From the sequence record PZ402301.1: a stretch of DNA of 64,000 nt. The stretch is one strand, 5' to 3'. Every line of letters starts with the position of its first letter. Position 1 is the stretch's first letter. Positions 18,067 to 48,142 of the stretch are shown here, in pieces. The notes under the pieces were generated by a model. The model was not told where the DNA came from. It made no database searches and saw only the letters and a program-made list of their open reading frames with translations. Made by a program: the position numbers and the translations under genes. The stretch is from a phage.

Positions 18067-18537
18067 TTAATCATGTTTCCACACCCCATCGGTATTTGAC
18101 CAAAGTCGCTGATTATCTGATCCTCGCCACAGCTTTTTGGTCGGAAGATTTTTCTCATACTTCCCATCAATAATAACATCAACATATTTAAGCATTTCTA
18201 GTTGTTTAATATCTTCAAACTTATATCCTGTCCACAACCAAATGCTTTTATTGGGATAAAGATTTTTTACTGTTTGAACAATGCAATGAACAACATCTCG
18301 GTTATCAGGATAGAGAGGGTCTCCTCCAGTTATAGTTAATCCTTCTATATAATCATTATTCAAACATTCAATTAATTGTTCTAGTGTTTCACCAGTGAAT
18401 GGAACACCATTTCTAGCATTCCATGTTGATTTATTATAACACCCTTCGCATTTATGCAAACAACCTGTAACGAAAAGAACGACCCTGCATCCAGGGCCAT
18501 TCACAAAATCGCAGGGATAAAATCTATCGTAATTCAT
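18067..18537 (-). CDS. nrdG: Anaerobic ribonucleotide reductase activating protein (radical SAM)
   Basis: 156 aa; CxxxCxxC cluster motif GCLHKCEGC; downstream of nrdD as in T4. Confidence 0.9.
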   Translation of the reverse strand: MNYDRFYPCDFVNGPGCRVVLFVTGCLHKCEGCYNKSTWNARNGVPFTGETLEQLIECLNNDYIEGLTITGGDPLYPDNRDVVHCIVQTVKNLYPNKSIWLWTGYKFEDIKQLEMLKYVDVIIDGKYEKNLPTKKLWRGSDNQRLWSNTDGVWKHD

Positions 18538-20428
18538 TGGTGTTTAACCCTATGCATGATTTCTTTATTTTTGCCAAGATTAAATCCGCGCTCGTTCGGA
18601 TTTCCCAAATAACCGCAAGTTCTTCTTATGGTGTTCATCTTTTTAGGATCAGTTTCTCCACAAATAGAACAAACAAATCCGTTTTCAGTAGGAGTCATTT
18701 CATGGGTACTTCCGCATGTAAAACATTTATCTACTGGCATATTAACACCAAAATAATCTAAATGTTGTGCAGCATAATCCCATACAGCCTCAAGACCTTT
18801 TAGGTTATTTTTCATATCAGGAAGTTCAACATAAGAAATGTGACCACCTGTCGCAATGAAATGATACGGAGCTTCGCGAGAAATCTTTTCAAACGGAGTA
18901 ATATTTTCTTCTACTGAAACGTGGAAACTGTTAGTATACCAGCCTTTATCGGTAACATCTTTTACACTTCCATATTTTTCGGTATCAAGTTTACAGAAGC
19001 GATAGCACAGGTTTTCAGCAGGAGTAGAATATAAGCTAAAAGCAAAACCAGTTCTTTCAGTCCATTGTTTAAGATGAATATTCATTTTAGTTAAAATTTC
19101 TTGTCCAATATCACGACCGACAAGAATATTCAATTCGTGAATACCAATGTATCCTAGGGACACTGAACTTCTACCGTTTTTAAATAACTCAATTATATCG
19201 TCATCAGGTTTAAGACGAACCCCGAATGCACCTTCTTGATAAAGAATAGGAGCAACAGTAGCTTTAACCCCTTTTAAGGAACTAATTCTACACATCAAAG
19301 CTTCAAAACATAAATCCATTCGCTCATTGAACAATTCAGTAAATTTCTGTTCATTGAACTGTGTTCCAATATAAGAATCTAACGCAATACGAGGAAGATT
19401 CAGTGTTACAACACCAAGATTATTACGTCCATCAAGAATTTCATTACCAGTCGAATCTTTCCATACGCCCAAGAAACTACGACAACCCATTGGAGAAACA
19501 GGAATAGATGAACCGGTGATAGCTTTATTGTTCTTAGCCGAAATGATGTCAGGATACATTCTTTTACTTGCACACTCTAGAGCAAGCTGCTTAATATCAT
19601 AGTTCGGATCGTCTTTATAAAGATTAACACCTTCTTCAACGAACATAACAAGTTTAGGGAAAATAGGAGTTATCCCGTCACGACCAAGGCCTTTAATACG
19701 ATTTTTCAGAATTGCTTTCTGAATCATTCGTTCAGTCCAGTCAGTTCCCATGCCAAATGTAATTGTTACAAAAGGCGTTTGTCCGTTTGAACTAAAGAGA
19801 GTATTTATTCAGTCCAGTCAGTTCCCATGCCAAATGTAATTGTTACAAAAGGCGTTTGTCCGTTTGAACTAAAGAGAGTATTTAGTTCATATTCATAAGC
19901 TTGGAATGCATCGTATACGTCTTTTTCTGTTTTAGATTGGGCATAATTCAACGCATCAGCGATTTGCCATTTTTCTGCATCCTCAATATGTTTTGCATAG
20001 GTGCGTTTAACATAAGGAGAAAGGACTTTATCTACATTCGCAAAAGTCGTTCCACCATATTGATGGGAAGCAACCTGTGCAGTAATTTGTGCCATAATTG
20101 CAGTAGCAACACCGATTGATTTAGGAGTTTCAATCTGTGCATTACCGAGCTTAAATCCGTTCTCAAGCATTCCTTTTAAATCTACTAAACAGCAATTAGT
20201 AAATGGAAGAGCAGGGGAATAATCAATATCATGGAAATGAATAATTCCGCTTTCATGCGCTTTCATAATAAAAGACGGGACCATATTTTTGGCAATGTGT
20301 TTAGACACAATACCAGCCATAAGGTCCCGTTGAGTTGGAAAAACACGAGAATCTTTATTAGCATTCTCGTTTAAAAGGTCTTTATTAGTTTTATGAATCA
20401 ATCCTTCAATTTCTTTTTCAATTGTCAT
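18534..20428 (-). pseudogene. nrdD: Anaerobic ribonucleotide reductase NrdD, frameshifted by a 77-bp tandem duplication; intronless
   Basis: Two ORFs (19805..20428, 207 aa; 18534..19751, 405 aa) both carry GMGTDWTE at the break; together about 605 aa as T4 NrdD; C-terminal fragment has the Zn-ribbon motifs CFTCGSTHEMTPTENGFVCSICG and glycyl-radical region RRTCGYLG. Confidence 0.85.
19731..19884. repeat. Perfect tandem direct duplication, 2 x 77 bp (19731-19807 and 19808-19884)
   Basis: Unit ttcagtccagtcagttcccatgccaaatgtaattgttacaaaaggcgtttgtccgtttgaactaaagagagtattta occurs twice head-to-tail. Confidence 0.95.
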
Positions 20429-37696: not shown

Positions 37697-37920
37697 ATAC
37701 TGGCTTCTTTGAGTTTCGTTTTAGCAATAGTTAACTGATCAAGACTTTCAGCATAATTCTTCGCGAATTCACAGTCTTCACAATTATCTAGTGCTTCCCA
37801 GAATTCATCATATAAAGCATCAAAGATAAGTCCTAAACGAACTTCAGCATCTTTAATAGCATTCACTTTACTGATTTTATCGTCAGTATGTGGCTTATAA
37901 CCTTTAATGTCTTCAATCAT
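37654..37920 (-). CDS. Hypothetical helical protein; positional candidate for T4 Vs.4/Acb2 (cyclic-oligonucleotide sponge)
   Basis: 88 aa ORF; assignment is by gene order only, sequence not verified. Confidence 0.35.
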
Positions 37921-38134
37921 ATTTTACTTCCTCACCTGTTCCCAAATCATATTCAACTAAACGAATAGGCTCATGAATGCCATATCCCTGAACAGAAATT
38001 TCTGTCGTAGGATAAATTCCACTAATATCACCCATGTTCCATGCTTCATTAAATTGCTGTTCGCCTGAATTACTAAACCACTCGGCGAAAGCATTTAGCA
38101 CATCTTTAGAACCTTCAATAATTATCTTTGCCAT
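37913..38134 (-). CDS. Hypothetical protein
   Basis: 73 aa ORF; start overlaps GrcA-like stop. Confidence 0.4.
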   Translation of the reverse strand: MAKIIIEGSKDVLNAFAEWFSNSGEQQFNEAWNMGDISGIYPTTEISVQGYGIHEPIRLVEYDLGTGEEVKYD

Positions 38135-38496
38135 TACAGACTCTCAGTAAAGGTACGAGCGATAACGTCGCGCTGCTGTTCCGGAGTCAGAGAGTTAAAG
38201 CGAACTGCATAACCGGATACACGGATGGTCAGCTGCGGATATTTTTCCGGATGCTTAACTGCATCTTCCAGAGTTTCACGACGCAGAACGTTTACGTTCA
38301 GGTGTTGACCACCCTCAATTTTAACTGTAGGATGTGTTTCAATTTCAATTTCACGGGCATGCAAACCATAGAAAATTTCTGGGTCTACAAAAGAGTCCTC
38401 TTTAAAAGTTTTAGAGACAATAATTCGTGCTTGAATACCGTCTTCAAAATAAATAGTACCTTTATGCGTGCCTTCAAGAATTTGATATGCTTTCAT
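38134..38496 (-). CDS. Autonomous glycyl radical cofactor (GrcA/YfiD-like; T4 Y06I-type)
   Basis: ATG at 38494-38496 with SD GAGAGG; C-terminus ...[60 protein letters not shown] carries the RVSGY glycyl-radical motif. Confidence 0.85.
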
Positions 38497-38504
38497 ATAA
38501 CCTC

Positions 38505-38885
38505 TCAATTAGAAAATAAATTTATCCAAGATTGCTCTTTAATTAAAAATGGCTCAGAATCATATGCCATTAAACTTTGGGTGATTAGTCCTTTAAAAGG
38601 TCCATCAATAAATTCCATGGTAAAATATGGAATTTTATTCATTAATCTTGCATTAGGAGCAGTGCACAAAACTCTGCATCCTTTGAATACGCCTTTTTGT
38701 AATTTGTATTGCTTAGGATAAAATTCGCTCAAGACGTTGTTATTTGCCAAAATTTCAAAATGATTCACCAATTTATTTTTAATAGTTTTTGGCGAAAAAT
38801 AAAGATATTCGAAAAGTTGCGTGTCTGTCATCATTGCATTCCGATTATGAAAAACTGTGGACGAGTAATACCACCAATGCAGCAT
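38505..38885 (-). CDS. Hypothetical protein
   Basis: 126 aa ORF. Confidence 0.4.
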
Positions 38886-46279: not shown

Positions 46280-46355
46280 TGGTCGAGGCAGTAGGGATCG
46301 AACCTACGACCTAGGACTTAGAAGGTCCTTGCTCTTCCTTCTGAGCTATGCCTCG
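46280..46355 (-). tRNA. tRNA-Arg (anticodon UCU)
   Basis: Manual fold of reverse complement: acceptor CGAGGCA/TGCCTCG, anticodon loop CUUCUAA, T-loop TTCGATC, encoded CCA. Confidence 0.8.
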
Positions 46356-46359
46356 GATT

Positions 46360-46434
46360 TGGCGGACATGCATGGATTCGAACCATGGACCAATTGATTA
46401 ACAGTCAACTGCTCTACCACTGAGCTACACATCC
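46360..46434 (-). tRNA. tRNA-Asn (anticodon GUU)
   Basis: Manual fold: acceptor GGATGTG/CATGTCC, D-arm GCTCAGTGGTAGAGC, anticodon loop CUGUUAA, T-loop TTCGAAT, CCA. Confidence 0.75.
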
Positions 46435-46438
46435 AAAT

Positions 46439-46525
46439 TGGTGGGGAGTGATGGAGTCGAACCACCCGAGTCGCAATGACAATGGATTTACAGTCCACAC
46501 CGCTACCTCTACGGGATAACTCCCC
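46439..46525 (-). tRNA. tRNA-Tyr (anticodon GUA), long variable arm
   Basis: Manual fold: acceptor GGGGAGT/ACTCCCC, anticodon loop CUGUAAA, 87 nt with extra arm, CCA. Confidence 0.75.
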
Positions 46526-46538
46526 TTAATTCTTAATT

Positions 46539-46613
46539 TGGTGGCCCTGGGTGGAATTGAACCACCATCTGGCGATTATGAGTCGCTTGCTTGAACCTTC
46601 CAGCTACAGGGCC
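46539..46613 (-). tRNA. tRNA with anticodon CAU (Met, or Ile if lysidine-modified as in T4)
   Basis: Manual fold: acceptor GGCCCTG/CAGGGCC, anticodon loop CUCAUAA, T-loop TTCAATT, CCA. Confidence 0.7.
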
Positions 46614-46621
46614 AAATTTTC

Positions 46622-47104
46622 TTATTTTATGTAATATTTATTTAAAAACTTTCTAGCTTGAGTATGGCTAACATTTATAGCGTTTGCATAATTTTTAATA
46701 AAACCTCGTTCATCCATATTAAAATTTTCTAATATTTTTAATCGTCTAGTTATCTCATCTTGACTTAAGGTACTTGCATTATTTTTAGAAATTTTTTCTA
46801 AGGACTGCGCCGAGTGTTTTCGACCATTAAAATTAAAATTTTTAGATTTTGGAGGAAATCTAGCATTTAGTCTCGCATCTTTTGTATTTTGATTATTAGT
46901 TGCGCAATATATGTTATTTAATGAATATGGTCCTTTATCGCCGAAACGGCACATGCAATATTCATGACCCTTTCTTCCACGCTTATCATAATTTCCCGTT
47001 GATTTCCACCAATGCAGCCATTCATCAAAAGTTAAATTCCATTCAATGTTTCTACGTATAGCAGAATTCCGCTGAGAAATATATTTTGCATAATCTTCTT
47101 TCAT
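46622..47104 (-). CDS. Homing-endonuclease-like protein (NUMOD3-type motif, C-terminal HTH-like tail)
   Basis: About 160 aa; NGRKHSAQSLEKISK resembles NUMOD3; C-terminus NVSHTQARKFLNKY parallels the segB-like ORF; catalytic domain type unclear. Confidence 0.5.
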   Translation of the reverse strand: MKEDYAKYISQRNSAIRRNIEWNLTFDEWLHWWKSTGNYDKRGRKGHEYCMCRFGDKGPYSLNNIYCATNNQNTKDARLNARFPPKSKNFNFNGRKHSAQSLEKISKNNASTLSQDEITRRLKILENFNMDERGFIKNYANAINVSHTQARKFLNKYYIK

Positions 47105-47151
47105 CACAAATTTCTCTACTTATTCAATACACTGAGCTAAATCAGCAAAAC

Positions 47152-47241
47152 TGGCGGAGGCGATAGGATTTGAACCTATGAGTCGCCGGAGCGACTGCCG
47201 GTTTTCAAGACCGGTGCATTAAACCACTCTGCCACGCCTCC
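47152..47241 (-). tRNA. tRNA-Ser (anticodon UGA), long variable arm
   Basis: Manual fold: acceptor GGAGGCG/CGCCTCC, anticodon loop CUUGAAA, T-loop TTCAAAT, CCA. Confidence 0.8.
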
Positions 47242-47247
47242 AAATAT

Positions 47248-47856
47248 TTATATACTGTTAATTTGATTTAGAATTCTTTTTGCTTGAGTATGACTTACTC
47301 CAATATGCTTAGCATATTTATATAATTCACCACGCTTAGAAAAATCATATAATTTAGAAATTTCTATTCTTCTTTTTCTTTCATCCGCAGAAACTTTTGC
47401 TTCGTTTGCTTTTGCTATTTTACGTTTAGCTTCTTGAGAATGAGTTTTACCAGCAAAGCCATTCTTCATTAATCCATTTGAAGACCATCCTTTTAATTTT
47501 CCATTAGAATGAGCCTTTTTAACACCCAATGAAATTAATTCGCGTTGCTGATCTGTCATAGGATAATTATTTATATGGTCCCATCCACCTTCACCGCCAA
47601 GTTTTAAATTATACACATCTGGTCTATTTAAAAACTCTTCTGTGACAATATTTTTCTCGGCTTCAAGCATAGATTCTTTATCATCAAAATACTCTAATAT
47701 TTCTTTAGAGAAATTTTCTATACCATACTTGTCTTGGGCTCTTTTTAATAATTTACCAGAACCCATATATCCATCATCTAAATTTTCGGTAGAATGCACA
47801 CCAATATAAATTTTATTATTAATTTTATTTGTTATTTTATAAAGATAAAAATGCAT
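47248..47856 (-). mobile_element. segB: GIY-YIG homing endonuclease gene (SegB-like) inside the tRNA cluster
   Basis: Start taken at MHFYLYKITNKINNKIYIGVHST (GIY-YIG core); NUMOD3-like GKTHSQEAKRKIAKA; C-terminal HTH-like tail; T4 segB also sits in the tRNA cluster. Confidence 0.7.
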
Positions 47857-47902
47857 ATCAGTCCCTAATAAAGAACTGAGCGTCTCACGACGAGTCATAA
47901 AT

Positions 47903-47976
<74 letters not shown>

Positions 47977-47981
47977 AAATT

Positions 47982-48068
47982 TGGTGCGAGAAGTGGGACT
48001 CGAACCCACAAGGAAATCATTCCGCAGCATTTTAAGTGCTGTGCCTTTACCAATTTGACCATTCTCGC
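47982..48068 (-). tRNA. tRNA-Leu (anticodon UAA), long variable arm
   Basis: Manual fold: acceptor GCGAGAA/TTCTCGC, anticodon loop CUUAAAA, T-loop TTCGAGT, CCA. Confidence 0.8.
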
Positions 48069-48069
48069 G

Positions 48070-48142
48070 CTGGGAATAAAGGACTTGAACCTTTGCATCT
48101 AGCAGTCAAAGTGCTATGCCTTACCAACTTGGCTAATTCCCA
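48070..48142 (-). tRNA. tRNA-Gln (anticodon UUG), CCA not encoded
   Basis: Manual fold: acceptor TGGGAAT/ATTCCCA, anticodon loop CUUUGAC; 3' end abuts tRNA-Leu 5' end as in the T4 Gln-Leu dimeric precursor. Confidence 0.8.

Follow-up and report, generated by a model that had tools for sequence, protein, structure and literature searches.

The vs.6 gene of T4-like phages, a glycyl-radical cofactor gene whose radical-domain tract very probably came from Escherichia grcA

Phages of the T4 type are usually described as having virtually no DNA in common with their host. The window analysed here, a stretch of 64,000 nt of phage DNA (sequence record PZ402301.1), raises the question of how one gene of such a phage could be host-like to the nucleotide in one half and thoroughly divergent in the other. 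A preliminary description, made without database searches, had drawn attention to a protein of 120 aa whose C-terminus appeared identical or nearly so to that of E. coli GrcA (YfiD) while its N-terminal half was divergent, and had taken this to imply recent acquisition from, or recombination with, the host gene. Both halves of that observation proved exact. As judged from the comparisons presented below, the gene is very probably a Y06I-type glycyl-radical cofactor gene in which the tract encoding the radical domain was overwritten from Escherichia grcA.

The vs.6 gene and its product

The window is a segment of a Tequatrovirus (T4-like) genome, with LYE-01 and KIT03 as its nearest relatives, and the gene in question is vs.6. 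The features that bear on its identity and predicted activity are these:

38134..38496, minus strand: coding sequence of vs.6 (Y06I), an ATG-initiated open reading frame of 120 aa plus stop, predicted to encode an autonomous glycyl-radical "spare part" protein
38501..38506, minus strand: GAGAGG, a Shine-Dalgarno-like sequence with a putative role in translation of the gene, 4 nt 5' of the vs.6 ATG
38212..38214, minus strand: codon of Gly95 within RVSGY, the predicted radical glycine, aligned with G102 of GrcA and G734 of PflB

The TAA stop of vs.6 overlaps the ATG of vs.5 (TAATG), and the gene lies between vs.7 and vs.5 in the early region from regB to denV, as annotated in KIT03 and T4. At the nucleotide level it shares 99.7% identity with vs.6 of KIT03 and 97.2% with that of T4, and 118 of its 120 residues are the same as in the T4 vs.6 protein (Y06I). 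Conserved position together with similarity over the full length places the gene in the T-even vs.6 orthologous group; the T4 protein, previously referred to as a homolog, is indeed related, and is more exactly an ortholog (97% nt, 118/120 aa, same position). At least 80% of vs.6 was covered in 921 phage records in a nucleotide search. We take the UniProt entry Y06I to be T4 vs.6. This assignment agrees with map position and domain content (PMC1524935). T4 has no other small Gly_radical protein, and vs.6 belongs to a set of 11 uncharacterised ORFs kept in all T4-like genomes examined (PMC1524935).

The product matches the Pfam family Gly_radical (PF01228) at 67.2 bits (cut-off 22.2), with residues 60-101 falling on profile positions 65-106, and the RVxG[YF] motif of this family is present near the C-terminus as RVSGY. 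Its top family match is the NCBIfam GrcA equivalog TIGR04365, with 154.5 bits over residues 20-120, which is under the curated cut-off of 170 bits because the N-half is divergent; E. coli GrcA itself scores 233.9 bits on this model. GrcA is also the top match in the PDB (6OWR, 8.7e-42), and the architecture is of the GrcA type, i.e., a stand-alone protein of ~14 kDa made up of an N-half and the C-terminal radical domain of PFL, without the catalytic barrel. The protein is a Y06I ortholog that by analogy would act as GrcA does, and the curated threshold places it outside the equivalogs of bacterial GrcA. Orthologs of vs.6 in GenBank are labelled hypothetical protein, pyruvate formate-lyase, 2-ketobutyrate formate-lyase, glycerol dehydratase radical, formate acetyltransferase or GrcA; where such a label names an enzyme, it is misleading for a radical-domain protein of 14 kDa.

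According to the work of Wagner (2001), as related in PMC8683613, E. coli YfiD and T4 Y06I both receive a glycyl radical from the PFL activase (PFL-AE) and restore PFL that oxygen has cleaved at Gly734. By analogy with the T4 ortholog, the host activase PflA would put the radical on Gly95 of the vs.6 protein, which would dock on host pyruvate formate-lyase cleaved at Gly734 and supply it with a new radical domain. The fermentative supply of acetyl-CoA and ATP could thereby continue in the infected cell under microaerobic conditions. The gene is probably expressed with its neighbours, as part of a translationally coupled early cluster.

A second glycyl-radical gene in the window, nrdD, had been described as disrupted, as it is, by a tandem duplication with a period of 77 nt and not by an intron. 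A perfect 73-nt repeat with a TAAA spacer (window 19731-19880, minus strand) produces a frameshift and a stop, and splits the gene into the ORFs 19805..20428 and 18534..19751, both of which contain MGTDWTE; a search with Rfam found no group I intron anywhere in the window. Since nrdD is intact, at 1818 nt, in the closest relatives KIT03 and LYE-01, the duplication is, by this comparison, either a private mutation or an assembly artefact. Nothing in the analysis ties nrdD to vs.6, the radical domain of which is of the PFL type.

A host-identical tract inside a phage gene

Three segments can be told apart within vs.6 when it is aligned with grcA:

38317..38496, minus strand: phage-type N-half, codons 1-60, with homology to the N-half of GrcA, which is disordered; 18 of 60 residues identical
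38144..38313, minus strand: apparently host-derived tract, a run of 170 nt that is 100% identical to E. coli grcA (A allele), from G62 to T117 plus the first two bases of E118, encoding the glycyl-radical domain
38134..38143, minus strand: phage-type 3' end, consisting of the third base of E118 (GAG) followed by AGT CTG TAA

All of the C-terminal 60 aa (E61-L120) are identical to E68-L127 of E. coli GrcA, against 30% of the N-terminal 60 aa, where there is a weak ARxIVxK...ED...RE similarity between the two proteins. The same division is seen in the DNA, with aligned identity to grcA of 50.3% in the N-half and 98.4% in the C-half (Fisher p = 4e-28). Bases 179-363 of vs.6 are 98.4% identical to grcA in every one of 5426 complete E. 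coli genomes (5426/5426), and the 5' half has no nucleotide match in these same genomes. The longest perfect in-register run that phage and grcA share is the one of 170 nt; between host genera the corresponding runs reach 68 nt at most, with a median of 23 nt. The similarity of the C-half is thus much greater than chance would produce. Base composition follows the same division: the N-half has a GC content of 32.8% and a GC3 of 18.3%, in a window of 34.9% GC, and the C-half has 50.6% and 45.0%, against 50.0% and 43.3% in E. coli grcA.

The preliminary description had proposed that a recombination breakpoint be sought between the two halves by DNA alignment, and it was found at codons 60-62. 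When the flanks are included in the alignment, identity to grcA jumps at these codons and stops at the stop codon, and neither flank of vs.6 is similar to the host grcA locus. The 5' junction lies between the phage codons AAA ATT (K59, I60) and GGT GGT (G62, G63). From G62 to T117 (gene positions 184-351, window 38146-38313) there are 0 differences from E. coli, and the run goes on for another 2 bases, to 38144. At the other end, GAG AGT is found in all phages, converted or not, and GAA AGC in all hosts; since the phages share GAG AGT, the last three codons appear to be ancestral phage sequence, with the 3' junction before them. The gene thus displays synonymous near-identity to a single host lineage, abrupt junctions (at codons 60-62 and three codons before the stop), host composition inside the tract only and phage composition outside it, as expected of a recombinant tract, and these features, with the Escherichia donor identified below, bear out the earlier suggestion of recombination with the host gene.

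The borders of the tract correspond to those of a protein domain. Residues 61-127 of YfiD form a structured domain that duplicates residues 693-759 of PFL, and residues 1-60 are disordered and aid activation as well as attachment to cleaved PFL (PMC8683613). The tract falls on the radical domain of GrcA, which is structured (61-127), and the half retained by the phage on the disordered residues 1-60.

Origin of the tract

To identify the donor, we compared the 183-nt C-block with grcA from 81 enterobacterial and Pasteurellaceae species, and with phage homologs from GenBank and IMG/VR. The blocks of the window, KIT03 and T4 match E. coli at 180/183 positions and the best other genus (Citrobacter amalonaticus) at 166-168/183, no match to any of the 80 non-Escherichia species being higher than 168/183; E. 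coli and Salmonella match at 155/183. At synonymous sites, dS is 0.07 between the window and E. coli, 0.40 between E. coli and Citrobacter and 0.94 between E. coli and Salmonella. By these comparisons, the donor of the tract is specifically Escherichia. Two other E. coli genes, pflB and tdcE, were rejected as donors, as each matches the tract at only ~80%; the low match of pflB points to grcA in its place. A Salmonella or Klebsiella counterpart was sought as well, and no phage was found with more than 95% identity to Salmonella grcA or to grcA of a Klebsiella MAG, in a host set that did not include Klebsiella pneumoniae.

Could the same pattern arise with no recombination at all? The whole host gene might have been captured once, after which the C-half was held in place by purifying selection or by convergent codon optimisation and the N-half drifted. 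The radical domain is indeed tightly constrained, such that 59-61 of the 61 block residues are the same as in the host in several phage genera. However, these genera also reveal what such constraint leaves behind. In Slopekvirus, Pseudotevenvirus and ENT3-type phages the C-block differs from host GrcA by 0-3 aa (dN up to 0.03), and yet its DNA is 83-85% identical to any host, with dS of 1.2-1.6. Constraint on amino acids therefore does not preserve synonymous sites, and the saturation of these sites in other T4-like genera argues that the identity of the vs.6 tract stems from a transfer of Escherichia DNA into a resident phage gene and not from selection. Codon optimisation was rejected on two further grounds: GC3 is 18% in the N-half of the same mRNA, and the agreement of the window with E. 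coli includes codons that are not optimal as well as a SNP that segregates in the host. The abrupt junctions, too, speak against gradual divergence of one captured gene. The synonymous-site data refute whole-gene capture with differential constraint, and we hold any history free of recombination to be very improbable.

Transfer of a host segment into an existing phage gene agrees with the distribution of unconverted relatives. A close T-even group (L098-L102) represents the unconverted state, with a C-half of 41% GC, 78-80% nucleotide identity and 7-8 aa differences, and an N-half that is ~75% identical; among 50,697 phage records, none has a host-like vs.6 5' half. The level of identity to GrcA deserves a qualification, as the preliminary description had asked whether it was any higher than is typical of T-even orthologs. 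Orthologs from other Tequatrovirus and Mosigvirus reach at least as high a level, but other T4-like genera fall far below it (83-91% nt). As to direction, the E. coli tract falls normally within the enterobacterial similarity gradient, and the substitutions private to phage tracts are mostly from GC to AT (14, against 7), because of which we read the transfer as being from host to phage. On the sequence evidence, we regard it as certain that at least one such event is required.

The mosaic is not peculiar to the phage of the window. A search for the tract in phages returned 751 records, comprising 227 at 99% identity or above, 416 at 95-99% and 104 at 80-90%, the last being mostly Klebsiella phages. 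T4 and ~640 Tequatrovirus and Mosigvirus records have the mosaic in common, and all sampled members of the two genera have the same junctions and the same phage-type last codons; the mosaic is a trait of this lineage. Within the window, the tract is the sole DNA identical to the host when compared with E. coli chromosomes, the remaining 63 kb outside vs.6 giving no megablast match to any of them. These findings also bear on whether host reads or a chimeric assembly put E. coli sequence into the contig. Host contamination does happen in phage assemblies, although nothing specific favours it here. More than 640 independent records, T4 from many laboratories among them, have identical in-frame junctions, the rest of the window is without a chromosomal match, and the tract bears substitutions private to phage lineages. 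An artefact of assembly or contamination is refuted by these three observations, and we consider it exceedingly improbable.

Several observations were made beside this main line. The window contains a cluster of 8 tRNA genes (46283-48142, minus strand), in which positions 46374-46531 are ~85% identical to a tRNA-Tyr/Thr/Asn cluster on plasmids of roughly 110 kb in 255 E. coli genomes, always on plasmids and never on chromosomes; these are probably phage-plasmids. In Klebsiella phage Shark_ER15 (L086, 601-963), RCIP0102 (L181, 523-885) and L117, the C-half of vs.6 has a GC content of 55.6% and a GC3 of 58%, and the N-half a GC content of 36.7%. The C-half of these phages carries LLDAVE of the Klebsiella/Salmonella type and is 90.7% identical to Pseudocitrobacter grcA (dS 0.37), which suggests a second host-derived tract, older or from an unsampled host, in another T-even lineage. 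T5-like phages (Tequintavirus and relatives; L091 (DT57C) 420-788, L133-L159) encode a GrcA-like protein of 122 aa beside tRNA genes; its C-block reaches only ~74% identity with any host grcA, and has several amino acid changes and no host-identical tract.

We propose that vs.6 is an old resident of T4-like genomes, and that in the Tequatrovirus-Mosigvirus lineage an internal tract of ~170 nt (G62-T117) was overwritten by a segment of Escherichia grcA through homologous or homeologous recombination during infection. Phage sequence would have been kept in the N-half, in the three final codons and at TAATG, the translationally coupled junction with vs.5, so that the product joins a phage-type recognition half to an exact copy of the host radical domain. 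The host-identical domain may secure the fit to host PflB and PflA, and the phage-type N-half may provide recognition. The likely route is recombination of T4 with fragments of host DNA, akin to marker rescue. The breakdown of host DNA by T4, and the modified cytosines that T4 carries, might both hinder exchange between phage and host. Later short-patch conversions would have moved alleles of the tract between phage backgrounds.

Tempo of exchange

Whether the host sequence entered once or keeps entering is a separate question, for which we compared pairwise dS between 12 Tequatrovirus and 8 Mosigvirus sequences:

vs.7: dS 1.16 between genera; 0.191 within Tequatrovirus, 0.088 within Mosigvirus
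vs.6 N-half: dS 0.39 between genera; 0.129 within Tequatrovirus, 0.058 within Mosigvirus
vs.6 tract: dS 0.093 between genera; 0.058 within Tequatrovirus, 0.100 within Mosigvirus
vs.5: dS 1.84 between genera; 0.148 within Tequatrovirus, 0.069 within Mosigvirus

In line with these values, vs.5 (37913-38134) and vs.7 (38505-38885) of the window, compared with L084, L085, L172 and L173, have dS of 1.8 and 1.2 and dN of 0.21 and 0.28, and vs.6 forms a conserved island in a hyperplastic region, between saturated flanking genes. Fixed differences between Tequatrovirus and Mosigvirus number 8 in the N-half (the nearest at position 170), 0 in the 168-nt tract and one at position 360, which puts the nearest ones 14 nt upstream and 9 nt downstream of the tract. 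An HKA-like test of fixed versus polymorphic sites within vs.6 gives p = 0.017 for all sites and p = 0.23, not significant, for synonymous sites alone.

A single site adds a further line of evidence:

38293, minus strand: gene position 204, third base of a Val codon (GTA/GTT), GTA in the window; a common A/T polymorphism of E. coli of which both alleles occur in T-even phages

In an even-step sample of the ranked matches, 5 of 11 rows matched the E. coli T-allele tract at 100%, which brackets the frequency of T at roughly 36-45%. Most phages have T, and A is found in the phage of the window and seven others of the collection (KIT03, LYE-01, BP32, SP1, Shfl2 and EC121 among them), each of these being identical to host genomes at 168/168 positions. 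Phage backgrounds with the A allele number at least three. Over 960 nt, from -520 to +439, position 204 is the sole difference between EC121 (A) and wV7 (T); this rules out a random point mutation (about 0.2-0.6%) and is a sign of short-patch conversion. The pattern points to repeated short-patch conversion, with either the host or a co-infecting phage as possible donor; a phage donor is possible because the tract is also the stretch best conserved between phages.

Two histories are compatible with most of these data. According to the first, the tract was converted once, in the common ancestor of Tequatrovirus and Mosigvirus or close to it, and has since been homogenised and shuffled among phages only, the A allele having arisen by mutation or through one further event. 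T-even phages are highly recombinogenic, and the junctions and phage-type last codons are common to all sampled members of both genera. Polymorphism of the tract within genera is as high as that of the N-half, which indicates that the tract is not brand new. On the other hand, a single conversion demands that patches exchanged between genera end within 14 nt and 9 nt of the borders of the host tract, and two further points speak against it: the A/T site matches a host polymorphism exactly, and the window, KIT03 and five others agree with a living E. coli allele at every one of 168-170 nt, in a gene with flanks that are saturated between genera. We give this history close to an even chance.

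According to the second, host-to-phage conversion is ongoing, and the tract is repeatedly reset from grcA of the infected E. coli strain in a natural form of marker rescue, such that it evolves in concert with the host. This would account for a between-genus dS of the tract no greater than that within genera, when the N-half and both neighbouring genes are far more diverged; for the lack of fixed differences inside the tract and their presence just beyond it; for the occurrence in phages of both host alleles, each on a tract 168/168 identical to host genomes; for the EC121 and wV7 pair; and for the proportion of phage records (227/751) at 99% or more identity to the host tract. However, the contrast within vs.6 is lost when synonymous sites are taken alone, and short-patch exchange among co-infecting phages would give the same patterns, the tract being the best conserved stretch. 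Moreover, the tract variants of RB33-type and PHB12-type phages, when compared, are not E. coli alleles, and with ~22 tract mutations on the tree we estimate the chance of coincidence with a host SNP at ~0.15. We regard continual resetting as a serious possibility, while leaning somewhat against it.

Significance and comparison with known systems

The gene vs.6 and its biochemical role are already known for T4, at the level of textbooks. For the mosaic in its DNA, we found no earlier account in the searchable literature, the coverage of which does not extend to key older T4 papers. What is added is evolutionary and modest: 170 nt equal to living E. coli alleles, the sole such stretch in 64 kb, located exactly on the structural domain that is obliged to fit the host enzyme. 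If exchange is ongoing, it would offer a simple and experimentally tractable case of gene conversion from host to virulent phage in nature. Continual overwriting, if true, would mean that a gene of a virulent phage evolves in concert with a host chromosomal gene and samples its alleles, and would explain how two genera with a dS above 1 in neighbouring genes have tracts that cannot be told apart, either from one another or from living E. coli. The mosaic also calls for caution in annotation and in filters for host contamination. Overall, vs.6 is a well-characterised gene of an ordinary kind, to which its evolution adds an attractive footnote.

The closest known system is Vs.6/Y06I of T4 itself, an ortholog that also lies between vs.7 and vs.5 and in which the host-derived tract recurs with identical junctions. 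The two differ at residues 54 and 55 (T54/H55 in the window, P54/Q55 in T4), at position 204 (A in the window, T in T4), at four other synonymous sites in the N-half and at two in the last three codons. With E. coli GrcA (YfiD, 6OWR) the phage protein shares the identical C-terminal 60 aa, RVSGY included, and the arrangement of an N-half followed by a structured radical domain; it differs in an N-half that is 7 residues shorter and identical at only 18/60 positions, and in being encoded by a phage, in an early-gene cluster, without host flanking DNA. The C-terminal domain of PflB (693-759) is the same fold element that the spare part replaces, and residues 54-120 of vs.6 align with it (1.4e-26); its identity to vs.6 is ~75-80% and not 100%, and in the DNA E. 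coli pflB is only ~80% identical to the tract.

Host and phage copies of auxiliary metabolic genes are known to undergo exchange with each other. In the psbA mosaics of cyanophages, the phage copy of a host metabolic gene swaps segments with the host gene by homologous recombination. The exchange proposed for vs.6 differs in that it would have taken place in a virulent hydroxymethylcytosine coliphage, is confined to one structural domain, and has left a tract still 100% identical to living host alleles. A precedent for the mechanism is provided by marker rescue and insertion/substitution recombination in T4, which readily recombines with short homologous cytosine-containing plasmid DNA, and thus with non-phage DNA in the infected cell. 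However, that is a laboratory system based on cloned T4 DNA, whereas the template for vs.6 would be a natural chromosomal gene of the host.
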